Counted from the first letter of the stretch, positions 6,080 through 28,169 are shown. The stretch is 32,000 nucleotides of DNA from Formosa sp. Hel1_33_131 (GCF_001735745.1 NZ_CP017260.1:780001-812000), one strand, 5' to 3'. The notes: generated by a model not told the origin, from the letters alone. Program-made: numbers and translations.

Positions 6080-6337
6080 TTATTTAGCTCTATCAATGAT
6101 TTCTACTAGTCTCCAACATTTAGATTTACTTAAGGGTCTTGTTTCCATGATCCTTACAGTATCACCTTCGTTGCAGTCGTTTTGCTCGTCGTGTGCTACG
6201 TACTTTTTAGTCTTTAGCACGAACTTTCCGTACATAGGATGTTTTACTTTTTTCACTTCAGAAACCACTATTGATTTCATCATTTTGTTACTTGTAACAA
6301 CGCCTACACGTTCTTTTCTTAAATTTCTTTTTTCCAT
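6080..6337 (-). CDS. rpsQ: 30S ribosomal protein S17
   Basis: [32 protein letters not shown]. Confidence 0.95.
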
Positions 6338-8133: not shown

Positions 8134-8412
8134 TTATTTTTTACCTTTATTTTTAGCACCTGCATGTCCACGGAATGAACGTGTTGGTGAAAATTCTCCT
8201 AGTTTATGACCTACCATGTTTTCAGTAACATATACTGGTACAAATTGGCGGCCGTTGTGTACTGCAATTGTTTGTCCAACAAAATCCGGTGTAATCATAC
8301 TGGCTCTAGACCAAGTTTTGATAACTGTTTTTTTGTTAGCGTCTACATTAGCAGCGACTTTTTTCTCTAACTTATAATGAACGAAAGGTCCTTTTTTTAA
8401 TGATCTTGCCAT
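8134..8412 (-). CDS. rpsS: 30S ribosomal protein S19
   Basis: [11 protein letters not shown]...[16 protein letters not shown]. Confidence 0.95.
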
Positions 8413-8418
8413 GTCTTA

Positions 8419-9243
8419 TTATTTCTTTCTACGTTCTATAATATACTTATTACTTGCTTTGGTCTTAGAACGGGTTCTAAATCCTTTAGCAGGAATACCG
8501 TTTCTTGAACGTGGATGTCCACCTGATGATTTTCCTTCACCACCACCCATTGGGTGATCGACTGGATTCATAACAACTGGTCTTGTTCTTGGACGTCTTC
8601 CTAACCAACGGCTTCTACCTGCTTTACCTGACACCAATAATTGGTGATCCGAGTTAGATACAACTCCGATAGTGGCGTTACATCCTAGCAATAGTAAACG
8701 CGTTTCACCAGATGGTAATTTTACCGTAGCAAATTTACCGTCTCTTGCCATTAATTGTGCAAATGCACCAGCACTACGTGCCATAACAGCTCCTTGTCCC
8801 GGACGTAGTTCGATACAAGAGATGATGGTTCCTAATGGAATTTGACTTAAAGGCATTGAATTCCCAACCTCTGGAACAACATCTACACCTGACACCAACT
8901 TTTGACCTACTTGAAGACCGTTTTGTGCAATGATATAGCGTTTTTCACCATCTTGGTAATTCAGAAGCGCAATAAATGCAGTTCTGTTTGGATCGTATTC
9001 AATAGATTTCACTTCGGCTGGAATCCCAGCTTTTTCTCTTTTGAAATCGATGATACGATATCTTTTCTTATGACCTCCACCGATATAGCGCATGGTCATT
9101 TTTCCTTGACTGTTTCTACCACCTGAACGTTTTTTCGGAGCTAATAAACTCTTCTCCGGCTTATCAGTAGTAATGGCATCATAGCCGTTTACTACTCTAA
9201 ATCGCTGTCCTGGGGTGATTGGTTTTAATTTTCTTACTGACAT
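8419..9243 (-). CDS. rplB: 50S ribosomal protein L2
   Basis: 274 aa, [21 protein letters not shown] motif. Confidence 0.95.
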
Positions 9244-9253
9244 GTTTGTCTAA

Positions 9254-9544
9254 TTAGATATTAGCGTATAAATCAATCGTTTCACCTTCCGCCAGTTGTA
9301 CAAGTGCTTTTTTAACAGCATTTGTTTTACCATGTTGAATCCCCGTTTTTGTAAACTTGGTTTTTCGATCTGGACGGACATTTATTGTACGAACTTTTTC
9401 AACAGAAACACCGTAAGCAGCTTCCACTGCTTTTTTGATTTCTACCTTGTTCGCCTTCGTATTCACTTGAAAGCTGAAGCAGTTTCTCAACTCACTCGCT
9501 TGTGATGCTTTCTCTGTGATTATTGGTTTAATTAAGATACTCAT
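9254..9544 (-). CDS. rplW: 50S ribosomal protein L23
   Basis: 96 aa, IIKPIITEKAS...; position between rplD and rplB. Confidence 0.9.
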   Translation of the reverse strand: MSILIKPIITEKASQASELRNCFSFQVNTKANKVEIKKAVEAAYGVSVEKVRTINVRPDRKTKFTKTGIQHGKTNAVKKALVQLAEGETIDLYANI

Positions 9545-9551
9545 GGTTTTC

Positions 9552-10181
9552 TTATTTACTTAAATTCGTTTCAATATTCTTTAAAGCGCTTTCAAAAAGC
9601 ACTACTTGATTCGCGTTTAATATTTTATAAGTACTTATTTCTGAGTCTATTAAAACTTCAGAGCCCTTTAAATTCCGCGAGGACAAATATACATTATTAT
9701 TTGAGCCACCCAAGACAAATAAAGACTTTTTGCTATCAAGGTTTAAGGCCTTTAATACAGCTGTAAAGTTCTTTGTTTTTGGAGTGTCAAATGTAAAGTC
9801 TTCTATAACCGTAATTGATTTTTCAGAAGCTTTTATTGTAAAGGCCGACTTTCGTGCTAAACGCTTTACATTTTTATTTAACTTGAAGCTGTAGTTTCTA
9901 GGTCTTGGACCGAACATGCGACCACCACCTCTAAAAACACCAGACTTGATACTTCCCGCACGGGCTGTACCAGTTCCTTTTTGCTTCTTGATCTTTCGAG
10001 TACTTCCCGAAATCTCAGCTCTTTCTTTTGACTTGTGCGTTCCTTGACGTTGGTTAGCAAGATATTGCTTAACATCTAGGTAAACCGCATGATTGTTTGG
10101 CTCTATAGCAAATACATCGTTAGAAAGGTCTGCCTTTCTACCTGTATCTTTTCCGTTTAAATCTAAAACTGCTACTTTCAT
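9552..10181 (-). CDS. rplD: 50S ribosomal protein L4
   Basis: 209 aa, QGTHKSKERAEISGSTRKIKKQKGTGTARAGSIKSGVFRGGGRMFGPRPR. Its start overlaps the rplC stop (TAATG). Confidence 0.95.
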   Translation of the reverse strand: MKVAVLDLNGKDTGRKADLSNDVFAIEPNNHAVYLDVKQYLANQRQGTHKSKERAEISGSTRKIKKQKGTGTARAGSIKSGVFRGGGRMFGPRPRNYSFKLNKNVKRLARKSAFTIKASEKSITVIEDFTFDTPKTKNFTAVLKALNLDSKKSLFVLGGSNNNVYLSSRNLKGSEVLIDSEISTYKILNANQVVLFESALKNIETNLSK

Positions 10182-10798
10182 TATTTCTGAATGATTAAAT
10201 AAGCGTTTTTAGGACCAGGAACACATCCTTTGATCACAAGTAGATTTTTTTCAGTTACTACTTTTAAAACTCTTAAATTTTGAACTTTAACTGTGTCGGT
10301 TCCCATACGTCCTGCCATTTTCATTCCTTTGAAAACTCTAGCTGGATACGAAGCCGCACCAATAGATCCTGGTGCACGTAAACGGTTGTGCTGTCCGTGA
10401 GTCGCTTGACCCACACCTGCAAATCCATGACGTTTTACAACCCCTTGAAATCCTTTACCTTTTGAAGTTCCAGAAACATCAACAAATTCGCCTTCGGCAA
10501 AATGCTCTACTGTTATGGTGTCTCCTAATTTGTACTCCTCATCAAATCCTTTAAATTCCGCGACTTTTCTCTTAACAGAAGTACCTGCTTTTTTGGCGTG
10601 ACCTAAGTCAGCTTTCGTAGCACTTTTCTCTGTCTTGTCATCGAAACCAAGCTGAAGGGCTGAATAGCCATCAACTTCTTCGGTTCTGACTTGGGTAACA
10701 ACGCATGGCCCAACTTCTATAACGGTACATGGCATATTTTTACCATTCGCGTCGAAGATGCTGGTCATTCCGATTTTTTTTCCTATTAACCCAGACAT
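10181..10798 (-). CDS. rplC: 50S ribosomal protein L3
   Basis: [15 protein letters not shown]...[15 protein letters not shown]. Unusually, rpsJ does not directly precede it. Confidence 0.95.
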
Positions 10799-10830
10799 AT
10801 TTATATATTTATTAATTAACTCTTTTTATT

Positions 10831-10863
10831 CCAAAACAAAGGGTCAAAATACGTTTCAACCCT
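10831..10863 (-). promoter_or_regulatory. Hairpin plus U-tract in the rplC leader (attenuator or terminator candidate)
   Basis: Minus-strand RNA AGGGUUGAA-ACGUAU-UUUGACCCU (10840-10863) forms a 9-bp stem that includes two G.U pairs. These pairs form only on the minus-strand transcript. UUGUUUUGG follows the stem. The element lies 143 nt after the stop of the 1272-aa gene and ends about 32 nt before the rplC ATG. Confidence 0.35.
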
Positions 10864-10972
10864 GAATTGTATTTTTTCCGTTTTTCCCTTGCACTCAGCT
10901 TGGGACATGTAAATCGCTGATTTTCAGCAATTATATCAAAAATTAAGGTGGTGACCTATGTTTTTCGAGCTG

Positions 10973-11005
10973 CAAATTTAGATAAATTTAATCTATTCAC
11001 CTAAA
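10973..11005 (-). promoter_or_regulatory. Candidate Bacteroidota-type promoter for rplC and the downstream ribosomal genes
   Basis: The minus strand reads TAAATTTG (10973-10980), an exact match to the -7 consensus TAnnTTTG. The -33 element 21 nt upstream is TTTA (11002-11005) rather than TTTG. Confidence 0.3.
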
Positions 11006-14000
11006 TTATTTAGAAATTATTTTAAATGCGCCTACACTTCCTTCTGTTTTGAGAATACAGATATAAAAGGTGTTGGATGGAATTGTATGACTTAGGCGAA
11101 TGGTTTCACTCGTTCCAATCTGTTGATTTGGTTTATCGATGAGGCGTTTTCCGGTAAGATCAAAAAGATAAACATCGGTATTTTTTGGAGCCTTTGAAAT
11201 ATTTTTAATTATAAGTTGTTGATTGTCGATCAAAACAGTAAAGTCGGGTGTTAGGTCTGAAATATCAGAAGGCTCAAATCCAAGGGTACTTGTTATAAGG
11301 TGGTTTATATAGTAATCTTGCACTTTTTGAATCCAAAAATGATCGTCTGTCAATGTCGCTCCAGGAGCCACTGGATCTCCAATTCCATCGGTACTGTCTC
11401 CTACACCAGCTCCCATAAGCACTAGTTTCACACCTATATCATTGAGTTCTTCAAAATGATTTCCGAAAGTGACATGTTTACTAGTGGGGTTAGAAATTAA
11501 CTTTGGATCGTTATGTTTGTTTTGAGAAAAATAATCAAACCGTGCTTGATCATTTGAAAAATCGATTTCATCGCCAAAGAAAAAAGGGGATGCAGAATCT
11601 TCATAATATTTTGAAGTATTTGGGAGTGTTGCAAAGTTGGTGCCGGTGTACTCATTAATAGTTGTAGAGCCGTTTATGTGTCCTACGGTAATTTGCCATA
11701 ATATAACATGAACCCCAGCTTCTTCAAATAAAGCCCTGACAAAAGCGAAGTAATTGAGCCAGTGGTCATTATTCCAAAACCAAGTCCAAGAAGATGGATC
11801 GGCAGGGTCGCTTGCATTGCTATAACCCAACGCATCGAGACCATATTTATCTATGGAAATAAAATCTGCATTATGGCTCATGATCCCCATTCTTTCACTA
11901 TAACGATAAATATCAATTGCGGTCTGTTTTATCTTTTGTAGCTGCGTTTGAAAATCACCACCTCCAACTCCGCTAACATTGTCTGTTTCTCTAATAATTC
12001 CGCGGACTCCTGCAACATTCGGCTTTGCCCATAAGTTCATTTGCCACCCAAATTCTAAATTCAAATTATCATCAATTCGTTTTTTATTGATTTCAAAGTT
12101 GATGCGTTCTACAAGCGATTTAAGGGTTCCAGCATTGGTTCCAATCGTTGTTGCACCTACAGCAGTTGCCAAGGTTTCAGGTTCTGAATTTTGTTGCATA
12201 TACCCTAAGAAATCGGGCTCAAAAATGACTCCAAAAAACTCATCGCCTACAATGTCTCTTACTTGATTTAAAAACAGCTCTAAGTTCTCAAAATAGGCTG
12301 TCATATAGGTAGGAGACTGAATGTGTTCTAGATTTGTAGTGTATGATTCTCCTCCATCAGGGATGTTATAAAATATAAAAACAGGCATCAGCCCCATCTT
12401 TAGACTGTTTCTTGCAAACTTCATGACTCTATCTGGTTGCCATGTGTTCCAACCGATTAATGGCCCTCCATTTATATACGTATATCGAACGTCCATTCGA
12501 TTGTTGAGCATTAAATTAGTGTTGTTGATGCCGTTATTAAAGAAGTTTACATCGTCGGGGATATCTTCAGAGACAGAGCCTATAGAAATATGAGTGGGGT
12601 ATCTAGGCACGGTGCCATCTGCATTATCAATTCGGAGTCCGATGTAATACTTGTCGCCATCGGATGTTGTGATTTCTAGACCGGTTCTCCCTGGATTATT
12701 GGAGTTGACGGTTAGTTTAGAATTTGCAAAAGAAAACTGAGTCAGTGTTAAATCCCGTGATTTGACACTTGTAATGGTTTTATCAAAAGTAAAAACTTTG
12801 GTAACACCTTCTAAACCTTTAAGTTGATAGGGCAAATTGGCAAATAGAATCGACTCTTTAGAAGGGTCTATTATTTCATATTTTAAATACACATAATTAG
12901 AAGTCCCCATATCATCTGTAATTCCTAATCTTAAATTAGTGATTCCATATTGAGAAGGCGTCCAAGAAATAGAGGTTGCCGTGGCGCTAGCAGAAGATGT
13001 GATCGTTGTGAATTCATCGTATAAGGATATGCTTTGTATCGGTCGATCTGTTTGGCTGGCTGTAAAATGAATGACTATGGGGGTAAAATTTAATTGAAAA
13101 AACCTTGAATCAGATTCTGGAGTTGTTAATGCAATGTTTGGAGGCTGGTTCTTCGCCACTTTAATAGCTCCTATAAGTTCGGAACTTAAATTAATACTAT
13201 TTGTACCTTCTATTCTAATATTGTAGTCTGTGTAAGCATCTGGTATAAAATCGTAGGTGTATTGATTATTTGCACCAAGGGTCATGTCAAAAGACTGAAA
13301 TGTGCTTTGGCTAAATTTTTTGATGAATACTTTTGTAGTGCTAATTGGAAAATCAACATCTACAATTGTGGCTAAAATATTGATGGTCTGCAGAGTGGGT
13401 TGTATAAAAGTTTTAGCACCTTCAAAACTTGAGGTTAATACTGGTGGTTTTACACAAATTCCTAAAAAAACATAGGCATCAGATTGGTCTGGAGTCACAG
13501 TTCCAACAATAGGGTAGGATGTTCTATACAAGCCTTCATTATACACTACATTTACATTTCCTACATAATTATCCGGTTTGGACACCCAATCTATAAAGTC
13601 ATCACAATTGGTTTGAATTGTTAAATTGGCTGGGACACAAGTACCTATATTTGTCCATAAAGCATTTGTGTTGGGTGGATTTCCGCCACTAGTTACATAG
13701 GCTGTGTTTTCGTATATAAATCCATTATAATAAACTGTGCTAGGAGTCCCTGAGGTAAATGGGTAGTTTCTTGTACTATACCAATTTGGCGCCGCACAAT
13801 TTGAATTATAGGCTTCGAGGCTAAAAACGACAGTTGCTATATTAGCGTTTTCATCTTCAACAAAAGCCGTAATTGTGGTGATTCCATCTAGAGCTGGCGT
13901 CCAAGAGGCTCTATAGTTATTATTGACATAGCTCGCATATACAGCTTGTGAATTAGCTGTTGTTTTATAATAGACCTTTTTTGGTGGTAAATTCCCGTTT

Positions 14001-14824
14001 ACTTGGGCATTAAAAACTAAACTGATGGGTTGGCTCGCTGTATAGTAGGAGAGACTTCCATCTGCTGGAGAAACCAAACTAATAGAGGGTGGCACTTGTC
14101 TGTTAATAATAATTGAAGCATTATAAAACCCCTCTTTATTAGATTGATTGGTCGCTTTAAAAACTAAGGTGTATGCGCCATAGGTTGTAGGAAGCCAATT
14201 ATAATCATAAGTACCAGCTGTAACTGTTGATTCGGAAAGTACTGTACTTACAACATCCACTCCGTCTTTTTGAATTGTAATTAAGACCTCTGTAATATCA
14301 ACCCCGAAATCTTGAACTGTAGCAGTTGCTAAAATATTTTGAAGCGGATCCATCGTATAGTTTTGTGAGGCCGAGATATTTGATGTGACTGTTGGTGGCT
14401 TCACACAAACACCTTCAAAAGTATACGCATCATGTGAATCTGGTCTCACATCTATATTAATATAATATTTAGCTTTATATAACCCATTATTATAACTTAC
14501 CAGGGCATCTGTTGGAAAGCCGGTTGTGGCACCAGGTTGTGTAACCCAAGCGGTCGCAGACGCACAATCTGCATCCGAAGCAACAGGGACAACACTGCTG
14601 GTACAAGCCCCTAGTAACGTCCAAGCAGGATTTACATCTGGTGCGGCAGTATTAGCGTTCACATACCCTGCGTTTCTGTAAACGTTATTAGTATGATATA
14701 CATGATATCCGATCGAATAGTTTCTGGTTGCATCCCAGACAGGGACTCCGCAATCATTTCCAAATTGGGCAAATGTAAAATAACTCACAAACAGAAATAC
14801 CAAAGAGATAAAAGATGTTTTCAT
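11006..14824 (-). CDS. Secreted multidomain carbohydrate-active protein, 1272 aa. Order of parts: signal peptide, 2x[CBM5/12-like - CBM5/12-like - Ig-like - Ig-like], beta-sandwich linker, GH6-like domain, T9SS C-terminal sorting domain.
   Basis: N-terminal signal peptide MKTSFISLVFLFVSYFTFAQ. There are four Cys-bounded W/Y-rich modules of about 50 aa, for example CGVPVWDATRNYSIGYHVYHTNNVYRNAGYVNAN...NPAWTLLGAC. The C-terminal domain carries FYNIPDGGES / VIFEPDFL / LEFGW / GAGVGDSTDG motifs. The tail is Por-type (DVYLFDLTGKRLID...FYICILKTEGSVGAFKIISK). Confidence 0.85.
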   Translation of the reverse strand: MKTSFISLVFLFVSYFTFAQFGNDCGVPVWDATRNYSIGYHVYHTNNVYRNAGYVNANTAAPDVNPAWTLLGACTSSVVPVASDADCASATAWVTQPGATTGFPTDALVSYNNGLYKAKYYINIDVRPDSHDAYTFEGVCVKPPTVTSNISASQNYTMDPLQNILATATVQDFGVDITEVLITIQKDGVDVVSTVLSESTVTAGTYDYNWLPTTYGAYTLVFKATNQSNKEGFYNASIIINRQVPPSISLVSPADGSLSYYTASQPISLVFNAQVNGNLPPKKVYYKTTANSQAVYASYVNNNYRASWTPALDGITTITAFVEDENANIATVVFSLEAYNSNCAAPNWYSTRNYPFTSGTPSTVYYNGFIYENTAYVTSGGNPPNTNALWTNIGTCVPANLTIQTNCDDFIDWVSKPDNYVGNVNVVYNEGLYRTSYPIVGTVTPDQSDAYVFLGICVKPPVLTSSFEGAKTFIQPTLQTINILATIVDVDFPISTTKVFIKKFSQSTFQSFDMTLGANNQYTYDFIPDAYTDYNIRIEGTNSINLSSELIGAIKVAKNQPPNIALTTPESDSRFFQLNFTPIVIHFTASQTDRPIQSISLYDEFTTITSSASATATSISWTPSQYGITNLRLGITDDMGTSNYVYLKYEIIDPSKESILFANLPYQLKGLEGVTKVFTFDKTITSVKSRDLTLTQFSFANSKLTVNSNNPGRTGLEITTSDGDKYYIGLRIDNADGTVPRYPTHISIGSVSEDIPDDVNFFNNGINNTNLMLNNRMDVRYTYINGGPLIGWNTWQPDRVMKFARNSLKMGLMPVFIFYNIPDGGESYTTNLEHIQSPTYMTAYFENLELFLNQVRDIVGDEFFGVIFEPDFLGYMQQNSEPETLATAVGATTIGTNAGTLKSLVERINFEINKKRIDDNLNLEFGWQMNLWAKPNVAGVRGIIRETDNVSGVGGGDFQTQLQKIKQTAIDIYRYSERMGIMSHNADFISIDKYGLDALGYSNASDPADPSSWTWFWNNDHWLNYFAFVRALFEEAGVHVILWQITVGHINGSTTINEYTGTNFATLPNTSKYYEDSASPFFFGDEIDFSNDQARFDYFSQNKHNDPKLISNPTSKHVTFGNHFEELNDIGVKLVLMGAGVGDSTDGIGDPVAPGATLTDDHFWIQKVQDYYINHLITSTLGFEPSDISDLTPDFTVLIDNQQLIIKNISKAPKNTDVYLFDLTGKRLIDKPNQQIGTSETIRLSHTIPSNTFYICILKTEGSVGAFKIISK
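11009..11248 (-). other. T9SS C-terminal sorting domain (type A-like) of the 1272-aa protein
   Basis: The last ~80 aa follow the pattern V-x-hydrophobic-F-D-x-x-G-K/R..., then a GxY/FY-hydrophobic strand, then a short basic C-terminus. This is typical of Por_Secre_tail domains. Confidence 0.6.
11291..12604 (-). other. GH6-like (distorted alpha/beta barrel) putative catalytic domain, residues ~741-1178
   Basis: The motif order resembles GH6. YNIPDGGE (819-826) matches YDLPDRDC. VIFEPDFL (EPD at 869-871, nt 12212-12220) matches IEPDSL. The Tyr-to-Glu spacing is 50 aa, the same as I recall for Hypocrea jecorina Cel6A. LEFGW (923-927) matches LDAGH. GAGVGDSTDG (1138-1147) matches PGGECDG. The comparison is from memory, with no alignment run. 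Confidence 0.4.
12860..13798 (-). repeat. Copy 2 of an in-frame ~315-aa module (CBM-CBM-Ig-Ig), residues 343-655
   Basis: CAAPNWYSTRNY...GTC, then CDDFIDWVSKPDNY...GIC, then VKPPVLTSS..., then NQPPNIALTTP... This runs parallel to copy 1. Confidence 0.7.
13799..14752 (-). repeat. Copy 1 of an in-frame ~315-aa module (CBM-CBM-Ig-Ig), residues 25-342
   Basis: CGVPVWDATRNY...GAC, then CASATAWVTQPG...GVC, then VKPPTVTSN..., then RQVPPSISLVSP... The two copies are diverged at protein level and are not a DNA-level perfect repeat. Confidence 0.7.
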
Positions 14825-14854
14825 TTTAGAAGAAATTGAGGGTTAGGTTTGGGG

Positions 14855-17800
14855 TTACTTTTTAAGGATTTTTTTATAAAATATACCAGACTCCGTTTTT
14901 AGTTCCATTATATAAAGGGTACTTTCAAAGGCACTTAAATCGATACTAGAAGTGTCGGGGTTTAATTTATGATATAACCTATTACCTTTGATATCGAAAA
15001 TATTTATTTCGTTGATTTTGTGTGGAGATTTAATTGTTATACTGTGTTCTAAAGGGTTTGGATAGACTTTTGGCACTTCACTCTTAACTTGGTCATCAAC
15101 ACTGAACGTTGAACTAAAATAATTGAAATAATCTGTAGAGAATTCATACGCAGAGGCACAATTGGCTGCCGCATCCCAGTTAACAGACCATGTCATCACC
15201 CCTCTTAAACCTGGATGTGGGCCATTTTGCAATGTGTAACTCCTCCCTGAAAAGGTTGTTCCAAACCTCAAATAACCCAAGGCTTTGATCGTCTCTGAAG
15301 GTTGTAAATATCCTCCGGCAGGTGCCGCTGCTGGGCACGCTGGAATACCAACCATAATTTTTGAGGCTGGTAATCCCGGAAAATTAAATCCTGTTGAAGC
15401 TACATTAAAACCTGTGATTAACATATCTGACATAGACGTTAGAAAATCGGGGGTTGCTTGAGAATACGCTTGTCCATCTAATGCAGTGACAGATCCCGTA
15501 TTATAAAGTTGCACCATCACTAAATCTAATTCAGAACGCAAGTTATGAATCACTGGTAAAAAAGCTCCAGCCGTATTGGTATATGTTGAGCCCCCAACCT
15601 GAACGTAAAAGGTTTCAGGAGCACATGTTAAAATAAGATTAGCTCCATAATGTGCCTTTAGTTCTTTAAAAGCATCTACTACATTTTTAAGTTTTGGAAA
15701 CGCAGAGATTCCTGTATATGAAAAATCGGTTAAGGCGCCAGCCCCGAAATCCATAGAACCTCCTTCAAAATCTAAGTCAATACCATCAAAACCATATTCA
15801 TCAATAATGTCTTTCAGCCCTTGAACAAATTCATTTTTTTGTGCAACAGTACTTAACTCTACATGACCATTTTGCCCTCCTATGGATACAATTACAGGGA
15901 TACCTTGACTTCTCAAACTATTAATGTCATCCTTAAGCAGCTGTTTATCATAAACCCCATTCGTTAGATATCTGGGTGAGTTAATTGTTAACTGAGGCGT
16001 GTACCCATTTTGACCAACTGTTTCTATAAATGAATACATCACTACATTATACTTTGAAGTTAACATATCCCTAAAATACAAGAATGGTGCTGCTGTATTT
16101 TCCCAAGAGTGAGCATAGCCTAAAATAATATTCCCACTAGGTAGCGGCACAAATGGAGAATCGATAATATTTAGGGTCTTGACAAGACTCACTGCCCCCC
16201 CATCATTATCTGTAGCCGTAATTGTAAGTGGATATGCTTGGTGATTGGTGGGCGTAAAACTATATGTAAATGTATTGTTGGCTCCAGATGACATACTTGT
16301 CGTTGTGCCATCAATTGTAATTGAAACGGAAGCTATCGTTCCGTCTGTGTCTGTCACGGTAGTCTGTATTGCTATGGGTTGGAAGCCTGAATTTTGACTA
16401 ATATTCGTATTTACAGGAGTGTCCCATACAATCGTTGGCAATACATTGGGGCAATTGGTTCCCGTACAATTTAAAGTAAATTGAAACGTCTCTGTGGCAG
16501 TTTCATTATTAGAGCTTTGAGCAGTCACCTTTAAGGTGTGTGAGGCATTGTAATCTGAGTCTTGTGGAGCCCAATTTGCTGAATATATATTTTGATTGTT
16601 TGTGTTTGCAATGGTGGTATTATCTATTTGAAAAGTAACGCTGTTTATTGTTGTAGAGCCATCGTCAAAACTTAAGCCCACCATAGCTTCTAAGTTTACA
16701 TTGGTTCCATAAGCATTCGCTAAAGTAGCTTGATTGGGCGCATTTATAGTGACCTCTGGCTTTACAAGTTGCGCATTGAAATTATATTCTTGGGCCATTG
16801 TGGTAATTGCTATGTTCGCTACACTTATAGGGTAGAAAACCGTATTATTATTATCATAATCATTTAATTTTAATGAATTAATAATATTATAACCATCTAA
16901 CTCCGTTTCGGTAAAGAAATACTCTCCATTAGCATTTGCAGTTTTAGGTATTTGTTTATAGCCATGAGTACTGTCGGTCCATGGTAATATTAAATTCAAC
17001 TTGGCACCAGCTACCGGGGTTATCCCGTTTTTTACCGTACCATATATGAGGCCTTTATTTTCCTCAAAATTGGCAATGCCATTTGCATTTAGCATACTAA
17101 AGCTGATGCTTGTAGGTTTAAATACGATGTTGTTTAAGCTAGGCGTCACTACATAATCATATCCTGCTGGAACATTGTTAAAAGTATAATTTCCACTAGA
17201 ATCCGTCATAGAATTATAAGTTTGACTGTTTCCTGTGAGCTGTAAGCTCACCCCTGACATCCCTGTATTTGCGGAGGTTACAATTCCTGAAATTGTATGA
17301 GAATTTCGTGTAGCTACTATTTCTTGATTTGTCTGGTCAGAGTTAAAGTTGGTATATGTCAACGCAGTAAAGGAATAAAAATCTTTTTCTGCAGTTAGAG
17401 AATAGTCGAGGTTGTCTATTACAGAACTCAAATTAAAATTCCCATCGGCTGAAGTAAGGCGTTCTAATTCGACATTACTACTATTATTTAAGACAACATC
17501 AACATTGGCTAGTAGCTGTCCATTTTCCTTAACACTTCCTTGTATCATAGACGTTTGATCTGAACCTATAACATTTATAGTTTTATCCCCGTCAAACTCT
17601 AAAAGGGCATAACTCACATCACTAGGTAAAAAAGCATAGCTATTATAAGAATAATTTATAGTGTAAGCTAAAAAGCCTGTTTTGTTGTTAAAAATTACTT
17701 GGCCATTTGCAGCTGTAGTTTGAGATTCTAATACTGTACCACCGACATCTCGTAATTCTACTCTAATTCCTTGTATAGGCACAGCGGTTGGATTCTTAAA

Positions 17801-18244
17801 ATTCAATGTAATGCTGAATTCTGAGTTTACGAGGGTAGATTCTACAGTATCTAAAAGACCGTTGGTAGAGTTTCGAGCATCTTGAGAAAGCTCCCATATC
17901 ATAACACCCCCCAAGTTTTGTGACAATGCATACTTAACTTTTAAATCTATGGATTGAGTATCTTCATAGCTGATAAACTTTTGTTGAGTGGGGTTATAAA
18001 GGTAAGGAACAAGAGCATCAACATGCCAACGTCGTTCCCAACCAGCTATAGCGGCAGCAGTTGAAACTGCAAGTGGATTTGTTGGGTCTAGAAAATGATG
18101 TGGATTCGTTGCTCTTCCTTGAAATAAATCACAAAAATCGATAGCTCCCGTTGTTTCACAATTATAATTAGCAATATCATCCCAAGTTCCTACTGGAGGC
18201 TCCGGCAAACTACACGCTGGATTCGTTGTTCTTGGGGCACTCAC
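14855..18244 (-). CDS. Downstream fragment of a ChiA-like chitinase. It holds the C-terminal third of GH18 domain 1, CarboxypepD_reg-like and Ig-like repeats, the complete GH18 domain 2 and a T9SS CTD.
   Basis: The ORF opens with an internal GTG. Its first ~137 aa (...LKVKYALSQNLGGVMIWELSQD...) are the terminal strands of a GH18 barrel. The second catalytic motif DGIDLDFE is at nt 15764-15787. The tail is KVYPNPLEHSITIKS...INIFDIKGNRL...LYIMELKTESGIFYKKILKK. Confidence 0.85.
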   Translation of the reverse strand: MSAPRTTNPACSLPEPPVGTWDDIANYNCETTGAIDFCDLFQGRATNPHHFLDPTNPLAVSTAAAIAGWERRWHVDALVPYLYNPTQQKFISYEDTQSIDLKVKYALSQNLGGVMIWELSQDARNSTNGLLDTVESTLVNSEFSITLNFKNPTAVPIQGIRVELRDVGGTVLESQTTAANGQVIFNNKTGFLAYTINYSYNSYAFLPSDVSYALLEFDGDKTINVIGSDQTSMIQGSVKENGQLLANVDVVLNNSSNVELERLTSADGNFNLSSVIDNLDYSLTAEKDFYSFTALTYTNFNSDQTNQEIVATRNSHTISGIVTSANTGMSGVSLQLTGNSQTYNSMTDSSGNYTFNNVPAGYDYVVTPSLNNIVFKPTSISFSMLNANGIANFEENKGLIYGTVKNGITPVAGAKLNLILPWTDSTHGYKQIPKTANANGEYFFTETELDGYNIINSLKLNDYDNNNTVFYPISVANIAITTMAQEYNFNAQLVKPEVTINAPNQATLANAYGTNVNLEAMVGLSFDDGSTTINSVTFQIDNTTIANTNNQNIYSANWAPQDSDYNASHTLKVTAQSSNNETATETFQFTLNCTGTNCPNVLPTIVWDTPVNTNISQNSGFQPIAIQTTVTDTDGTIASVSITIDGTTTSMSSGANNTFTYSFTPTNHQAYPLTITATDNDGGAVSLVKTLNIIDSPFVPLPSGNIILGYAHSWENTAAPFLYFRDMLTSKYNVVMYSFIETVGQNGYTPQLTINSPRYLTNGVYDKQLLKDDINSLRSQGIPVIVSIGGQNGHVELSTVAQKNEFVQGLKDIIDEYGFDGIDLDFEGGSMDFGAGALTDFSYTGISAFPKLKNVVDAFKELKAHYGANLILTCAPETFYVQVGGSTYTNTAGAFLPVIHNLRSELDLVMVQLYNTGSVTALDGQAYSQATPDFLTSMSDMLITGFNVASTGFNFPGLPASKIMVGIPACPAAAPAGGYLQPSETIKALGYLRFGTTFSGRSYTLQNGPHPGLRGVMTWSVNWDAAANCASAYEFSTDYFNYFSSTFSVDDQVKSEVPKVYPNPLEHSITIKSPHKINEINIFDIKGNRLYHKLNPDTSSIDLSAFESTLYIMELKTESGIFYKKILKK
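14858..15073 (-). other. T9SS C-terminal sorting domain (type A, YPNP-containing) of the chitinase
   Basis: Residues ~1058-1129 of the downstream ORF. The VYPNP motif plus the IFDIKGNRL and LYIMELK strands are hallmarks of Por_Secre_tail. Confidence 0.7.
15110..16138 (-). other. GH18 catalytic domain 2 (class III / hevamine-like subtype)
   Basis: IILGYAHSWEN...VIVSIGGQNG...FDGIDLDFEGG...LILTCAPE...VMVQLYN...LRGVMTWSVNWD. Confidence 0.8.
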
Positions 18245-19184
18245 TTTCGTAGAGCCCAGGATTATTGGGATCTACTCCAGTTGCCGCAACACCTTCAAAT
18301 ATTTTTCCATAAAACGGAACTCCCATGACAAACTTATTGGCTGGGATGCCAACTTCTATTAGGTATAGCTTTATTAATTCATCTAATACTTGATTTCTTC
18401 CAGATGGATTGTGTAAGGGATCATTTACATTATCGCCCCCAAACAATGGCGCATTAAAACATGTTTTATCATACCAATTCCCTCCAAAGTCATAGCCAAA
18501 ACAAGTAACGAAATTACAGTAATCCATGATGTTGGTTGTCATGTTGTTTGCTGCTTGATTATTAGGCCCTATAAACTGACTTGCAGCATTTGTTACATTG
18601 TTCCCCATCGCAATAGAAAGCTCTTTGGCTTGCATACCGTTCGAGTCAAAAGCAGCTCTTATATCTTTCAATAGGAAAACAAGGTTTTTATGGTCATTGG
18701 TTGTGTGTGGTTGTGCAGGAATTACTAAACCATTAACTTTTTCTTGGCCTTCGGTACCTCCCGTAATTGGGAATTCCCAATCAAGATCAAAACCATCAAT
18801 CCAAGGATACAAAGTCATGAAATCAACCATGCTTTGTGCGAAAGTTGTTCTTGCATTTTGGCTCGCCGCTATTTCAGGAAAATGTTGAGACTTTGTCCAC
18901 CCCCCTACAGAAATTAGAATTTTTAAATGCGGATTCCTCTCTTTTAATATTTTTAACTCTCCAATATTTCCTTTTACAGCAGCATTTGAAAGCAAGTTAT
19001 TTTCATCATGCCCAGTATCCGCCCAAGGATCTAAACTTTGTATAGAAGCTGAATCGTTGGAAGTGTCATAAACTGGATTGTAAAAAGCATATAGTACATG
19101 CGTAAGTTTATCAGCTTCTACATCTATAACATTAAAATCACGCGCATAAATGGCCCATTGAGCAAAGTAGCCAATCACTATTTT
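17834..19184 (-). other. GH18 catalytic domain 1 (bacterial ChiA-like subtype), interrupted by the frameshift
   Basis: IVIGYFAQWAIY...LISVGGW...DGFDLDWEFP (nt 18774-18797)...PFYGK in the upstream ORF. The domain continues as ...YEDTQSIDLKVKYALSQNLGGVMIWELSQD in the downstream ORF. Confidence 0.8.
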
Positions 19185-19313
19185 GGAGTGTTTTGGACCT
19201 GTTGTTTGATAATTTAAAAAATCGGCTGAAGAAGGGGTGTTGTCATTGTTCTGAAAAGAAGTTATACTCGTTACTGAAAGCAACAAAATAACACATAAGG
19301 TAAAATGTTTCAT
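18210..19313 (-). CDS. Upstream fragment of the ChiA-like chitinase: signal peptide plus the N-terminal two-thirds of GH18 domain 1
   Basis: Signal peptide MKHFTLCVILLLSVTSITSF. GH18 catalytic motif DGFDLDWE. The ORF ends in a shifted frame (...GLYESECPKNNESSV followed by a stop) and overlaps the next ORF by 35 nt. Confidence 0.85.
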   Translation of the reverse strand: MKHFTLCVILLLSVTSITSFQNNDNTPSSADFLNYQTTGPKHSKIVIGYFAQWAIYARDFNVIDVEADKLTHVLYAFYNPVYDTSNDSASIQSLDPWADTGHDENNLLSNAAVKGNIGELKILKERNPHLKILISVGGWTKSQHFPEIAASQNARTTFAQSMVDFMTLYPWIDGFDLDWEFPITGGTEGQEKVNGLVIPAQPHTTNDHKNLVFLLKDIRAAFDSNGMQAKELSIAMGNNVTNAASQFIGPNNQAANNMTTNIMDYCNFVTCFGYDFGGNWYDKTCFNAPLFGGDNVNDPLHNPSGRNQVLDELIKLYLIEVGIPANKFVMGVPFYGKIFEGVAATGVDPNNPGLYESECPKNNESSV

Positions 19314-19373
19314 AAGCAGGTTTTTTAGTTCTGGGGAGAACTGTGGTTAGTAATATATTGTGGCATAATATAC

Positions 19374-19413
19374 AAAAACAGTGCCAAATATAAAATTTAG
19401 CACTGTTTTTTTT
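19374..19413 (-). terminator. Rho-independent-type hairpin (symmetric, bidirectional) just downstream of rpsJ
   Basis: AAAAACAGTGC - 15-nt loop - GCACTGTTTTTTTT. The GC core is 6 bp (19379-19384 with 19400-19405) and can extend through A/T pairs. A T-run follows the stem on both strands. It lies 46 nt after the rpsJ stop and 61 nt before the chitinase ATG. Confidence 0.5.
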
Positions 19414-19458
19414 ATTCAAAAATGTAGGTGTTAGTTTCAAAATCGACACCTGTCGTAA

Positions 19459-19764
19459 TTATACTTTAATTTCTACTTCTACACCACTCGGTAATTCAAG
19501 TTTCATCAAAGCATCAATTGTTTTGGATGAAGAACTATAAATATCTAGTAGTCTTTTGTAAGAGCTTAATTGAAATTGTTCTCTCGATTTTTTGTTAACG
19601 TGTGGAGAACGTAATACAGTGAAAAGTTTTTTGTGGGTTGGTAATGGGATTGGACCCGTTACGATAGCACCTGTACTTTTTACGGTTTTTACAATCTTAT
19701 CAGCAGACTTGTCTACTAAGTTATGATCGTAAGACTTTAATTTTATTCTGATTTTTTGACTCAT
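19459..19764 (-). CDS. rpsJ: 30S ribosomal protein S10
   Basis: [20 protein letters not shown]...[31 protein letters not shown]. Confidence 0.95.
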
Positions 19765-19775
19765 GTTCTTAACTT

Positions 19776-21902
19776 TTAAGATTGGATTCCTTTAGCTTCT
19801 TTAATAACTTCTTCTGAGATGTTTGAAGGTGTTTCAGCATAGTGTGAAAATTCCATAGTGGAAGTTGCACGACCAGATGATAGCGTTCTTAAGGTGGTTA
19901 CATAACCAAACATTTCTGAAAGAGGCACTGTAGCTTTTACAGTTTTTGCTCCTGCTCTATCGCCCATGTCACTTACTTGTCCACGACGACGGTTAAGGTC
20001 TCCTACAATATCTCCCATATTTTCCTCAGGAGTAATAACTTCTAATTTCATGATTGGTTCCATGATCACTGCTTTGGCTGCTTTGGCTGAATTTTTAAAT
20101 CCAAGCTTCGCGGCTAATTCAAAAGAGAGTTGATCCGAATCCACATCGTGGTAAGATCCATCTTTTAAAGTCACTTTTACAGCATCCACTTCGTAACCAG
20201 CAAGCGGCCCATTGACCATTGCCATTTTGAATCCTTTTTCAATAGAAGGAATAAATTCTTTAGGTACATTTCCACCCTTGATCGCAGATACAAACTGAAG
20301 TCCTACAACACCTTCGTCTGCTGGCTCAATTGTAAATACGATGTCCGCAAATTTTCCACGACCACCAGATTGTTTCTTGTAAACTTCTCTGTGATTAGCC
20401 GATTGTGTAATTGCTTCTTTAAATTCAACTTGTGGTTGACCTTGATTTACTTCTACTTTAAATTCACGACGTAAACGATCTACAATGACATCTAAGTGCA
20501 ATTCACCCATTCCTGAAATAATCGTTTGCCCTGAAGCTTCGTCAGAACGAACTGTAAACGTTGGATCTTCTTCAGCTAATTTACCAAGACCGATACCTAG
20601 TTTATCAACATCTGCTTTGGTCTTTGGTTCCACTGCGATACCAATTACGGGATCCGGGAAGTCCATAGATTCTAAAACAATAGGATGTTTTTCAGCTGAT
20701 AATGTATCTCCTGTTTTGATGGATTTAAATCCAACAGCAGCTCCAATATCTCCAGCTTCGATATAGTCAATTGCATTTTGCTTGTTTGCATGCATTTGGT
20801 AGATACGTGAAATACGTTCTTTTTTACCAGAACGGTTATTTAACACATACGACCCTGCATCTAAACGACCAGAATAAACACGGAAAAAAGCTAAACGTCC
20901 TACGAAAGGATCGGTTGCAATTTTAAATGCTAGTGCCGCAAACGGCTCTTTTACATCTGGCTTGCGTATTTCTTCTAATTCAGTATCTGGATTCATACCC
21001 ACAATACCTTCTTTGTCTGTTGGAGCAGGTAAATAACGACATACAGCATCTAAAAGAAACTGAACTCCTTTATTTTTAAATGCGGAACCACAGATCATAG
21101 GAATGATGGCCATGTCCATAACAGCAGCTCTCAATGCATTGTGCACTTCTTCTTCTGTAATAGAATCTTCATCTTCCATGAATTTCTCTAAAAGATCTTC
21201 ATCGTAACTTGCTACTTCTTCAATTAGCTTCGCACGAAGGATTTTTGCTTCTTCTTTAAGATCATCAGGAATATCAACAACATCAAAAGTTGCTCCCATT
21301 CCTTCTTCATGCCAGATAATAGCACGGTTCTTAACTAAATCTACAATACCTTTAAAATCTTCTTCATCACCAATATTCAAAACAATAGGCACTGCATTAG
21401 AGCCTAACATTTCTTTTACTTGGCTACAAACCATCATAAAATCAGATCCTTGACGGTCCATTTTATTGACGAAACCAATTCTTGGCACTTTATAGTTGTC
21501 GGCCAGTCTCCAGTTTGTTTCAGATTGAGGCTCAACACCATCAACTGCACTAAACAAGAATACTAAACCATCAAGCACACGTAAAGATCGATTTACTTCA
21601 ACAGTAAAATCAACGTGGCCTGGAGTATCAATAATATTAAAATGGTAGTCCTTCGCATCTTCCGTAGGCTTGCCATTTTCTGTAGGGAATTCCCATTCAC
21701 AGGTGGTTGCAGCAGACGTAATAGTAATACCACGTTCTTGCTCTTGTTCCATCCAGTCCATTGTTGCAGCACCATCATGTACTTCACCAATTTTGTGAGA
21801 AACTCCTGTATAATAAAGAATACGCTCCGTTGTAGTGGTTTTTCCTGCATCAATGTGCGCAGCAATCCCAATATTTCTTGTGAATCTTAAATCTCTTGCC
21901 AT
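19776..21902 (-). CDS. fusA: elongation factor G
   Basis: 708 aa. G1 motif [19 protein letters not shown], then DTPGHVDF and NKMDR. Confidence 0.97.
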
Positions 21903-22405: not shown

Positions 22406-22780
22406 TTATTTCTTAGGGCGTTTTGCACCATACTTAGATCTACGTTGTGTACGACCTGAAACACCTGCGGTGTCTAAAGCCCCACGTACAATGTGGTATC
22501 TAACTCCTGGTAAATCTTTTACCCTTCCACCTCTAACTAATACTATCGAGTGCTCTTGTAAATTATGTCCTTCACCACCGATGTATGCGTTGACTTCGTT
22601 TCCATTTGTCAACCTAACTCTTGCAACTTTACGCATTGCTGAATTTGGTTTTTTTGGAGTCGTCGTGTAAACACGAGTACACACACCACGTCGCTGAGGA
22701 CAAGAATTTAAAGCAGCCGATTTACTCTTCTTAGTTATTTTGGCTCTTCCTTTTCTTACTAATTGTGAAATTGTTGGCAT
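22406..22780 (-). CDS. rpsL: 30S ribosomal protein S12
   Basis: [12 protein letters not shown]...[20 protein letters not shown]...[19 protein letters not shown]. Confidence 0.97.
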
Positions 22781-24638: not shown

Positions 24639-24900
24639 ACAACTTCTTAGAGTGACATTTTTTGTTGTGTTAAAACAGCAAAAAAATAACTGAGATTAAA
24701 GCTTTTTTAGTCCACAAATACAACTTTAAGTTCAATTTAATATATTAATATACAATTAAATATTATACTAAACAATTTTTTTGTGAAATATTCAATCAAA
24801 AGCATATTTGTTTATTTTAATTAAAATTTTGTTAAACAAAATTTAGGATTTTAACACTTTTATCATCAAGTTTGCGGATATCAAATTAAAACAAACTAAA

Positions 24901-28158: not shown

Positions 28159-28169
28159 CAATATAAAAG

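Follow-up and report, generated by a model that had tools for sequence, protein, structure and literature searches.

The genes between rpsJ and rplC

In the window, which is the whole 32,000-nucleotide stretch of Formosa sp. Hel1_33_131 DNA analysed here and to which all coordinates refer, the ribosomal genes rpsJ (S10; 19459-19764, Pfam Ribosomal_S10 at 125.5 bits, FORMB_07310) and rplC (L3; 10181-10798, Pfam Ribosomal_L3, FORMB_07270) lie 8,660 bp apart (10799-19458), with locus tags FORMB_07270 to FORMB_07310 spanning the region; both genes, and every feature described between them, are on the minus strand. rpsJ closes an rpsL-rpsG-fusA-rpsJ run, in which fusA and rpsJ are separated by 11 nt with no leader between them, as in all relatives, and rplC opens the run that extends from rplC to secY. 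The large open reading frames of the gap are all encoded on the ribosomal strand and belong to chiA and, 30 bp further on, to the gene of a 1,272-residue protein (hereafter P1272), so that the interval is a two-gene chitin-degradation module. The gap, the common strand and the short intergenic distance had been noted in the initial annotation, and all three are borne out.

The gap contains no tRNA, its borders carry no terminal direct or inverted repeats, and the Pfam search returned no integrase or transposase domains, in agreement with what had been read at the borders before. Moreover, the GC and GC3 contents of the module are those of its flanks, so that the GC part of the composition comparison proposed earlier yields no deviant signal. 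A mobile genomic island was rejected, as none of its marks (a gene for an integrase or a transposase, a tRNA as target site, repeats on either side, an unusual composition) is present. An assembly artefact, in which the ribosomal cluster would have been joined up chimerically, has nothing in its favour and is refuted: the order rpsJ-chiA-P1272-rplC recurs on at least 23 independent contigs of 65-311 kb (98.5-99.9% identical) that come from several samples in ENA and JGI, and is also found in the isolate's finished 2.74-Mb genome and in a sister-species MAG (L017). The check for misassembly thus returned a real arrangement.

In the isolate, chiA is present as two overlapping open reading frames. 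The 5' fragment (18210-19313, 367 aa, AOR27782.1) encodes a signal peptide and most of the first GH18 domain (Pfam GH18 at 167.5 bits, matched over positions 2-240 of the 317 in the profile; motif DGFDLDWE), while the 3' fragment (14855-18244, 1,129 aa, AOR27781.1; Pfam GH18 at 112.7 bits, Por_Secre_tail at 37.7 bits) encodes the end of that domain, Ig-like/CarboxypepD_reg repeats, a second GH18 domain (about 15335-16126, motif DGIDLDFE) and a type A T9SS sorting domain (about 14867-15067; PF18962 at 37.7 bits, TIGR04183 at 37.3 bits), the ChiA-type C sorting model NF033708 reaching 13.5 bits against a cut-off of 40. Both GH18 domains carry the DxxDxDxE catalytic motif. Alignment to the intact chiA of three environmental sequences (L001, L003, L015), which codes for 1,484 aa and whose protein was found on 60 contigs, places a 4-nt tandem duplication (AGTG/AGTG) at 18238-18245, inside the first GH18 domain, where it shifts the frame. 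The double-GH18 chitinase described at first therefore keeps its two GH18 domains, with the amendment that it is a single gene split in the isolate by the duplication.

Flavobacterium johnsoniae ChiA, reportedly described by Kharade and McBride in 2014, is a very large secreted chitinase with an N- and a C-terminal GH18 domain. The Formosa chiA resembles it in its great size, its two DxxDxDxE-bearing GH18 domains, its Ig-like linkers and its C-terminal T9SS signal, and differs from it in that its sorting domain is of type A instead of type C, that it resides in a ribosomal cluster and not in a SusC/D chitin utilisation locus, and that it is frameshifted in the Hel1_33_131 isolate. Similarly, the module shares with the polysaccharide utilisation loci (PULs) of Bacteroidota the co-oriented genes for secreted, T9SS-targeted, glycan-degrading enzymes, but neither SusC/D nor a regulator nor genes for downstream processing adjoin it. 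Its assignment to a PUL was rejected, since the nearest SusC/SusD pair (24901-29594, plus strand), 5.4 kb from the module, is divergent and parted from it by rpsL-rpsJ and a 562-aa gene.

P1272 and its GH6-like domain

P1272 (11006-14824; WP_069676139.1, 'hypothetical protein') begins with a signal-like N-terminus (MKTSFISLVFLFVSYFTFAQ) and contains two copies (aa 21-335 and 336-660; 29% identity, E 2e-35) of a module of about 315 residues that combines CBM-like with Ig-like units, a duplication seen only in the Formosa lineage. After these come an Ig-like sandwich, a GH6-like domain and a T9SS sorting domain that scores below threshold (PF18962 at 16.6 bits, cut-off 27; TIGR04183 at 20.9 bits, cut-off 23). 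The homologues of P1272 reach the sorting-domain thresholds, and the claim that both proteins carry such a domain holds for chiA and may hold for P1272, whose own scores lie under the cut-offs. The Pfam search gave no match to P1272 at E<=0.01, hence no Pfam catalytic domain, and its CBM5/12 matches lie below threshold (E=0.45 and 3.6).

The GH6-like catalytic domain (aa 755-1182; 11279-12562) is marked by invariant EPD and D..WI motifs. The family profile matched the GH6 structure 6fao in the PDB (E 1.2e-4), with a further GH6 match at E 0.74, and the best Foldseek match of the AF2 model of the domain (pLDDT 87.4) was again 6fao (E 2e-4, TM-scores 0.28/0.39). PF01341, the Pfam model of GH6, gave no match for P1272 itself in the Pfam search and only weak matches in the rest of the family, where 4 of the 47 members were hit, at E 0.0012 or worse; GH6 is nonetheless the only catalytic family found by the profile-to-PDB comparison, by Pfam on the family members and by the top Foldseek match. 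Specifically, the E-P-D residues, which do not vary in the alignments of 47 sequences or in the trimmed set of 13, align with the EPD of 6fao and of Humicola Cel6B (1dys), which is the GH6 catalytic-acid motif (L/I/V)xEPDxL, and the D..WI(Q) of the family aligns with the GH6 D..W(I/V)K. Conversely, the GH6 signature V-x-Y-x2-P-x-R-D-C is absent from the family, which has YNIPDGGES at the aligned position and hence 'PDGGES' for 'P-x-R-D-C', and with TM-scores of only 0.28-0.39 the structural similarity is weak.

These features indicate a small, unnamed, chitin-associated family that is a remote homologue of GH6. The description of P1272 as a CBM-rich GH6-like protein is thus retained for its GH6 part as remote homology, with neither a Pfam match nor an above-threshold CBM5/12 match to go with it. 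In other proteins the GH6-like domain is fused to CBM5/12, CBM2, ChitinaseA_N or GH18, and in 10 loci of other phyla the GH6-like gene has a GH18 gene as its neighbour; the CBM5/12, ChitinaseA_N and GH18 partners and the GH18 neighbours point to chitin rather than cellulose, and chitin is the presumed substrate of the P1272 enzyme.

Predicted transcription signals at the rpsJ–rplC junction

Downstream of rpsJ, the terminator scan identified a predicted intrinsic terminator with a 16-bp stem followed by UUUUUG (19374-19410; fold -25.4 kcal/mol, z -4.6), which is matched 3' of rpsJ in L017, L018, L019, L022 and L023; with the window, all six occupied loci examined have one. Its 3' arm overlaps a candidate -7 box of a chiA promoter (TATATTTG, 19385-19392), and a TAnnTTTG box occurs at or just past the rpsJ terminator in L017, L018, L022 and L023. 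The -7 boxes and terminators were called by pattern match plus conservation, and TAnnTTTG per se is no more frequent in the window than expected (42 occurrences vs 43.5). The promoter activity of this box and the terminator activity after rpsJ are put forward as predictions. The 5'UTR of chiA in the window resembles the 5'UTR of P1272 in L018. From the chiA start to the rplC leader, the terminator scan found no terminator-like site on the coding strand.

Upstream of rplC lies a conserved -7 box (TAAATTTG, 10973-10980) embedded in a TA.ATTTGCA element, which is found 3' of the P1272 stop in all five lineages, is unchanged across ten loci of these lineages and may be the promoter of the rplC operon. 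In lineages that bear the module or once bore it, rplC is always preceded by an invariant Bacteroidetes-type -7 box (TAnnTTTG) and the conserved leader; in the shortest rpsJ–rplC spacers the leader core begins 11-15 nt past the rpsJ stop, which leaves no room for a -7 box. The leader itself (10799-10966) is composed of a variable hairpin, a core (ACAUGUCC-n3-GC-n5-GC-n3-GGAAAAACGG, 10878-10910, occurring once in the window), an A-rich linker, and a putative attenuator hairpin with a covarying stem followed by a U run (10840-10863). The core was found in 120 of 120 scanned metagenome loci, each time between rpsJ and rplC, whose spacer has a median of 167 nt in these contigs and measures 120-220 nt in most other Flavobacteriia. 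The alignment of 101 non-redundant leader sequences has 23 invariant columns, with the core helices set in advance by the pattern used for the search. Of the 8 pairs that make up the terminator hairpin, 7 covary, and none of 500 shuffles reaches the observed score. Rfam gave no match to the leader at the gathering score and no relevant match at E<=10.

As a ribosomal-protein leader should, the element shows conserved sequence and structure directly 5' of an operon in many taxa, and it is probably an attenuator of the L4 type, whose ligand may be L4 or L3, both encoded downstream. The E. coli S10 operon leader, studied by Zengel and Lindahl, reportedly works by L4-mediated attenuation. The Formosa leader is like it in being conserved and in placing a terminator hairpin directly upstream of rplC-rplD and the following genes, which suggests autogenous control by transcription attenuation, and unlike it in lying 3' instead of 5' of rpsJ, with rpsJ joined to fusA, and in having a sequence and structure with no Rfam family. 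Furthermore, a published list of ribosomal-protein leaders includes no L3 or L4 leader for Flavobacteria (Eckert and Weinberg, 2020; PMC7247131). The GH6-like family and the rplC leader are by-products of this analysis that are more novel than the organisation of the locus.

A classical S10 operon was considered for the junction and set aside on two counts. Such an operon is led by rpsJ behind a promoter and a regulatory leader, and rpsJ here follows fusA at 11 nt with no leader; and it would have rpsJ and rplC co-transcribed with no signals in between, where the predicted terminator, -7 box and attenuator would all intervene here. By its sequence, the rpsJ/rplC junction is a regulatory boundary throughout Flavobacteriia, which does not support the notion of a recent insertion into a particularly tight gene pair. 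The DNA would thus be laid out as three tandem units: rpsL-rpsG-fusA-rpsJ, closed by an intrinsic terminator; chiA-P1272, which has a separate candidate promoter and lacks a terminator; and rplC to secY, with its own conserved -7 box and leader/attenuator. The site may tolerate the module because in Flavobacteriia rpsJ is attached to fusA and the autoregulated unit would begin only at rplC, behind its leader. Of the two scenarios first envisaged, an operon that was split and re-promoted fits these predicted signals; the terminator, the promoter-like box and the leader had not been part of the earlier reading.

The other scenario was read-through from the strong ribosomal promoter; functional coupling might also take the form of module transcripts entering the rplC operon via the attenuator. 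The single strand of all genes, the terminator-free stretch from chiA to the rplC leader, the mere 25 nt or so that part the P1272 stop from the promoter-like region of rplC, and the conservation of the P1272–rplC distance in 4 of 5 occupied lineages are all compatible with coupling of either kind. However, the strong predicted terminator right after rpsJ, the separate conserved -7 box of rplC, an attenuator hairpin that would halt most incoming transcripts, repeated loss of the module with no visible change in the ribosomal genes, and a module codon usage that is not ribosomal-like make such coupling quite unlikely.

Age, distribution and loss of the module

The rpsJ–rplC interval contains a P1272 homologue in each of L017, L018, L019, L021, L022 and L023, and same-site copies with a homologous 5'UTR and 3' junction are present in Bizionia and three other lineages, at 72-77% identity in the catalytic domain. 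Over P1272, identity is 95.7% to the sister Formosa species, 75-77% to L018/L019 and 71-72% to L022/L023, and the distance from the P1272 stop to rplC is 200-207 nt in the window/L017, L019, L022 and L023 and 392 nt in L018. Neighbour-joining trees on 414 aa and 540 aa, which carry no support values, unite the rpsJ-site copies in a single clade, and its branching order is that of the L3+L4 tree.

Decay is seen at several related sites. In L011, a 7.2-kb internal deletion leaves an in-frame 353-aa chiA/P1272 chimera; at the 'empty' sites, the 3' end of P1272 persists as 44 nt in L007, 16 nt in L009 and 21 nt in L012; and L029, L020 and L083 are additional deletion alleles. In a published study, chitin cultures of Hel1_33_131 served as the 'control' condition (Unfried et al., 2018; PMC6246565), a use that is counted on the side of module loss, and those supplementary tables that were searched contain no transcript or protein evidence for FORMB_07280-07300.

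A recent horizontal arrival of a CAZyme island, which in this strain or species would have disrupted an rpsJ-rplC pair that had been tight before, would account for close relatives that have an identical S10 protein and no module, and for module traces in only 2 of 120 sampled flavobacterial contigs, which show that the cassette is not family-wide. It is nevertheless very improbable, as the P1272 remnants and the chimera occupy the supposedly virgin sites, the same gene with homologous junctions stands at the same site in four other lineages, the composition is identical to that of the flanks, and mobility genes, tRNAs and repeats are lacking. The initial view of a recent accessory insertion is contradicted by the same-site homologues, the congruent trees, the deletion scars and the GC/GC3 values; the comparison of the interval in relatives that it had called for reveals a cassette that is not fixed in the family, yet old at its site.

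The preferred reading, to which a probability of about 0.7 is assigned, is that of an old, decaying chitin module at a natural rpsJ|rplC regulatory boundary, with the operon split and re-promoted. The module would have been at the site since before Formosa, Bizionia and related Flavobacteriaceae split; P1272 would have arrived first, chiA and the duplicated P1272 N-terminal module being confined to the Formosa lineage; and the module is now undergoing loss, through deletions in relatives and the 4-nt frameshift of chiA in the isolate.

Patchy occupancy bears on how the module, or its absence, was passed on. L019 has P1272 and L178 a 122-nt spacer although the two are 96.1% identical in L3+L4, so that strict vertical descent needs at least five complete losses. 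Lateral spread among Flavobacteriaceae by homologous recombination, with the ribosomal flanks as arms, would account for this distribution better than many independent losses, and the L3+L4 tree has module bearers and short-spacer lineages intermixed, junction sequences are common to all occupied sites and flanking genes are 90-100% identical across genera. Such spread is still unlikely, because the P1272 and L3+L4 trees are congruent, P1272 divergence scales with host divergence, and there is direct documentation of deletion but none of transfer. Moreover, the six shortest spacers, which have no upstream hairpin, all belong to the same L3+L4 clade as the module bearers, the pattern that clean deletions would leave.

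Lastly, ribosomal-protein clusters interrupted by unrelated genes were reportedly described by Coenye and Vandamme in 2005. The Formosa locus likewise has non-ribosomal genes between conserved S10-spc-alpha neighbours, and differs in that 8.7 kb of secreted CAZymes are placed exactly 5' of a conserved leader and that the interruption goes back to a single old event, after which its decay can be documented.

Interruption of the rpsJ-rplC pair and its history

On the minus strand of the window, rpsL (22406-22780) is followed by rpsG, fusA (19776-21902), and rpsJ (S10; 19459-19764, FORMB_07310), while rplC (L3; 10181-10798, FORMB_07270) heads the rest of the S10-spc cluster, which ends in the window with secY (616-1971). 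As the initial annotation had stated, rpsJ and rplC are separated by 8,660 bp. The interval holds three ORFs, all on the ribosomal strand, which make up a module of two genes, chiA and the gene of a 1,272-aa protein named P1272 here, and the gap between them is indeed 30 nt. The genome of Formosa sp. Hel1_33_131 is finished (2,735,158 bp). In the contig collection, 25 indexed blocks contain a protein identical to P1272, and the order rpsJ-chiA-P1272-rplC recurs on every contig long enough to carry both flanks (65-311 kb, several samples), with 98.5-99.9% nucleotide identity between these occupied contigs and the window over 23.6 kb. The same order is found in L017, a metagenome-assembled genome (MAG) of a sister species (uncultured Formosa sp., 92.9% nucleotide identity). 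Misassembly, which had initially been raised, is excluded because many independent contigs share the arrangement; the unusual gene order is genuine, and no published account of it was found in the literature. On the long contigs of the ENA series ERZ10646xxx (L002, L004, L005, L009, and L012), fusA, rplV, rpsC, rplE, and secY are often fragmented; such splitting of essential genes indicates frequent indel errors, so the intactness or breakage of a single gene on these contigs is to be read with caution.

Searches of the interval for tRNAs, terminal repeats at the borders, and integrase or transposase domains found none, in agreement with the initial annotation, and a mobile element was rejected on these grounds. 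Foreign composition, a check suggested at the outset, was also rejected, since the GC (0.376-0.378) and GC3 (0.29-0.30) of the two module genes equal those of the flanking genes; codon and tetranucleotide comparisons rested on few kilobases and were uninformative.

Relatives were scanned at one genome per species for P1272 homologues. Homologues of ~950 aa, without chiA, lie between rpsJ and rplC in a Flavobacteriaceae MAG (L018), two Bizionia loci (L019 and L021), and two further MAGs (L022 and L023), whose EF-G is 88-92% identical to that of the window. Specifically, the distance from the P1272 stop to the rplC ATG is 200-207 nt in the window, L017, L019, L022, and L023, and 392 nt in L018; a TA.ATTTGCA box downstream of the P1272 stop is invariant in these six loci, and the 5'UTR ahead of chiA in the window resembles the one ahead of P1272 in L018. 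Judged by these shared features, the junctions of the occupied loci are homologous. In a tree of the catalytic domain, the copies at the rpsJ site form one clade, which also includes a copy from another site (L024), and the topology of the P1272 tree is that of the L3+L4 tree, with L022/L023 basal, followed by L018, Formosa, and Bizionia. The homologues in Flavobacterium sit elsewhere in the genome, and, of the loci examined, those of the Formosa lineage alone carry chiA and the duplicated N-terminal module of P1272. The module is a long-standing, lineage-restricted occupant of the site and did not enter an intact operon recently; homologous occupied sites in Bizionia and in MAGs, together with scars in relatives, contradict the accessory insertion into a tight rpsJ-rplC pair that had first been proposed. 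The L024 homologue (8377-11220), placed beside Bizionia with 75% identity, lacks both fusA-rpsJ on its upstream side and rplC on its downstream side, and may be a secondary relocation.

The scars document the loss of the module. In Formosa relatives whose S10 protein is identical, just 340-417 nt separate rpsJ from rplC, and these spacers keep the terminal 44, 16, or 21 nt of P1272. At L011 (GCA_943788925.1), the sequence from rpsJ through the spacer to ~265 nt into chiA is retained; a microhomology marks the in-frame junction of this chiA start with the final ~810 nt of P1272, and the product is a 353-aa chimera (10447-11508) that also exists as a 13-member protein cluster. Additional deletion alleles are present at L029, L020, and L083. 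Empty sites with P1272 remnants, chimeras, and homologous junctions therefore indicate that the ancestral state of the clade is occupied and that the trend is loss. The comparison across Flavobacteriaceae suggested at the outset yielded occupied, scarred, and short-spacer loci, and the arrangement is not family-wide. As for the structure of the other alleles, L029 (484-3525) encodes a 1,014-aa chimera of the first GH18 domain and linkers joined to the last 380 aa of P1272, and L020 (547-3560) carries an in-frame or near in-frame deletion chimera of chiA and the P1272 gene.

The L3+L4 tree groups all loci that bear P1272 into a single major clade, in which they are interspersed with short-spacer taxa, and the occupied L019 is 96.1% identical in L3+L4 to L178, whose spacer is 122 nt. 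Opposite occupancy at such proximity is what would be expected if occupied and empty alleles were swapped by homologous recombination across near-identical ribosomal flanks, an unlikely explanation of the patchy distribution, as repeated loss is directly documented and agrees with the congruent trees of P1272 and L3+L4. Moreover, the six shortest spacers among the matches listed in a metagenome scan (L155, L178, L167, L070, L129, and L099; 120-126 nt), which are devoid of the upstream hairpin of the rplC leader, all lie within the clade that holds the module-bearing lineages, as clean deletions would predict.

The rplC leader and candidate transcription signals

About 205 nt before rplC are conserved across genera and include a putative leader RNA (10799-10966, minus strand), whose invariant core CATGTCC-n3-GC-n5-GC-n3-GGAAAAACGG, also written ACAUGUCC..GC..GC..GGAAAAACGG, occurs once in the window, at about 10878-10909. 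The metagenome scan with the core motif returned at least 120 loci (L064-L183), and the motif lies between rpsJ and rplC at every listed locus with assignable flanks. Among the matches listed, the measured spacers (n=105) span 120-382 nt with a median of 167 nt, one extra spacer of 718 nt has a P1272 fragment inside, and P1272 traces occur in 2 of the 120 loci. An alignment of 101 non-redundant copies divides the leader into a variable upstream hairpin, the invariant core, an A-rich linker, and a hairpin with a U run. This last hairpin shows compensatory changes at 7 of 8 pairs, with 97% of cells paired against 33-54% in slid controls, and none of 500 shuffles reached the observed covariation, which was judged for the U-run hairpin, the core helices being fixed by the search pattern and so not judgeable. 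In E. coli, the S10 leader carries an L4-responsive attenuator. The leader in the window shares with it the place directly before rplC-rplD and the form of a terminator hairpin and, for these reasons, would most simply be its counterpart in Flavobacteriia. Neither the leader nor the rest of the window matches an Rfam 15 family, no report of a flavobacterial rplC leader was found in the literature, and in the ribosomal-leader survey of Eckert & Weinberg (PMC7247131), Flavobacteria have no entry for an L3 or L4 leader. Read from these conserved elements, the rpsJ-rplC junction of Flavobacteriia marks a regulatory boundary.

In the shortest spacers, the leader core begins 11-15 nt past the rpsJ stop, and because this leaves scant room for a terminator or a promoter, rplC is presumably transcribed there from upstream via the attenuator. 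In all occupied or formerly occupied lineages, a strong predicted intrinsic terminator follows rpsJ (window 19374-19410, minus strand; 16-bp stem, z -4.6). Ahead of the module, at this terminator or just past it, a promoter-like TAnnTTTG box is present in the window, L017, L018, L022, and L023, not in L019, and a second, invariant box (10973-10980, minus strand) is located ~65 nt upstream of the leader core. Since TAnnTTTG is not enriched overall, only the conserved boxes were used; a sigma-70 promoter scan was set aside as not informative for Bacteroidota. On the coding strand from the chiA start to the rplC leader, no terminator-like hairpin was found. The most economical reading would be three tandem transcription units, with the leader hairpin doubling as the terminator of the module, where promoter and terminator activities at the junction are deduced from sequence. 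The operon thus read looks split and re-promoted, the option of the initial annotation to which the terminator after rpsJ and the invariant box and leader before rplC lend support.

The module sits at the one place of the cluster where a regulatory break already exists in Flavobacteriia, is bordered by putative compensating signals on both sides, and is decaying, also in the isolate, so that a single locus documents gain, repair, and later loss with scars. A highly conserved bacterial gene neighbourhood can take up foreign genes, here directly upstream of the regulatory element of the downstream genes. It is also conceivable, though quite improbable, that module transcripts end at, and are gated by, the ribosomal-protein attenuator, which would mechanically couple chitin-induced transcription to ribosomal-protein synthesis; what allows for it is the absence of a terminator belonging to the module itself and the position of the P1272 stop, which in four of the five occupied lineages lies right at the putative rplC promoter and leader.

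At L101, L117, L124, L153, and L172 (spacers of 241-336 nt), a terminator and a TACTTTTGCAA promoter-like box lie between rpsJ and the leader. The clade of L101, L117, L124, and others is separate and without P1272 traces; a split of the operon seems to have arisen independently in it, and the junction therefore seems prone to become an operon boundary.

P1272 as a remote relative of GH6

The P1272 gene (11006-14824, minus strand) encodes a 'hypothetical protein' (WP_069676139.1) with no Pfam hit for the whole protein, and sequence searches of P1272 in PDB, Pfam, and NCBIfam gave no match for its catalytic part. From the initial description as a CBM-rich, GH6-like protein of the T9SS, the remote GH6 homology holds, while the CBM5/12 and T9SS sorting-domain matches of P1272 itself are below threshold. 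The N-terminal half (12845-14764, minus strand) consists of two tandem copies of a ~315-aa module (29% identity, E 2e-35), of which homologues in other genera have one. Within each copy, two W/Y-rich units bounded by Cys accompany two Ig-like domains; for the first W/Y-rich unit there is a weak match (E 0.11) to the chitin-binding domain of chitinase 4txg.

A search with residues 660-1200 retrieved 288 homologues, whose partner domains are CBM5/12, CBM2, CBM49, ChitinaseA_N, chitobiase C-terminal, and T9SS sorting domains and, once, GH18; an exhaustive search of 1.84 billion representatives gave only 332 clusters with E<=1e-3. In 10 loci of Planctomycetota, Cyanobacteria, Chitinophaga, and Desulfobacca MAGs, a GH18 gene is directly downstream of the P1272-family gene. 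A relation to GH6 is indicated by three lines of evidence, each weak but all in agreement. Specifically, the trimmed family profile matches the GH6 endoglucanase 6fao (E 1.2e-4) and Cel6B 1dys (E 0.74), with the invariant EPD aligned to the GH6 catalytic-acid motif and DD.FWIQ to D..W(I/V)K; PF01341, weakly matched by 4 of 47 members, is the sole catalytic Pfam family besides the fused GH18; and Foldseek with the catalytic domain alone ranks 6fao on top (E 2e-4), at a TM of just 0.28/0.39, and with the Ig domain included returns only generic TIM-barrel hydrolases. The underlying AF2 models are confident (pLDDT 89.8 and 87.4, pTM 0.91) and consist of an Ig-like sandwich and an alpha/beta barrel. 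In contrast to GH6, the 'RDC' signature is 'GGES' in the P1272 family, and it is concluded that P1272 is a remote relative, not a member, of GH6. The partner domains and GH18 neighbours of the family suggest chitin or chitosan as the most likely substrate of P1272. The odds that P1272 is the founding member of a GH6-derived family of chitin-active enzymes not recognised before are just short of even, and better than those of the coupling to the attenuator; no report of a GH6-like chitin family was found in the literature. The family is unnamed and small, its ~330 clusters are widely scattered, and it is consistently linked to chitin-binding modules and GH18, which makes it a candidate for a new chitin-active family.

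The frameshift in chiA and differences between strains

The other module gene is divided in the window into a 5' ORF (18210-19313, minus strand; 367 aa, AOR27782.1) with a signal-like N-terminus and a GH18 match of 167.5 bits limited to profile positions 2-240 of 317, and a 3' ORF (14855-18244, minus strand; 1,129 aa, AOR27781.1) with Ig-like/CarboxypepD_reg repeats, a second GH18 (112.7 bits), and Por_Secre_tail (37.7 bits). The two ORFs overlap and are a single frameshifted chiA, which is intact, with 1,484 aa, in environmental contigs. The double-GH18 chitinase of the initial annotation is hence correct in both GH18 domains and the sorting domain, and not in its being one open frame in the window. 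The cause is a 4-nt tandem duplication at 18238-18245, GAAAGTG(AGTG)CCCC in the window versus GAAAGTGCCCC in intact contigs, which disrupts the first GH18 domain. As it is not a homopolymer error and is also found in the finished genome of the isolate, the duplication is probably a real, strain-specific inactivation. A broken chiA fits the lifestyle of the strain, whose streamlined genome, 21 glycoside hydrolases, and specialisation on laminarin are described by Unfried et al. 2018 (PMC6246565), who used its chitin cultures as the 'control' condition. FORMB_07280-07300 have no rows among those listed from the proteome tables of that study. The strain is a cultured, well-studied North Sea bloom bacterium, making direct testing feasible. 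A poly-G tract of chiA (~16201) is G7 in the window and in the environmental contig L001, and G9 in L017 (~6245-6251), where the frame is shifted; the difference may reflect another real inactivation, variability of the tract, or an error in the MAG.

Lastly, next to the str genes, the window carries an intact SusC gene (24901-28158; 1,085 aa) that corresponds, by counting locus tags from S10, to FORMB_07360, which ranks among the most abundant membrane proteins of the published proteome. In L001, L008, and L015, where chiA is intact, 2.37 kb are missing (window 24655-27028) and a 386-aa C-terminal SusC stub is left. The decay is reciprocal between strains, with chiA broken in the window and SusC truncated in these three loci.
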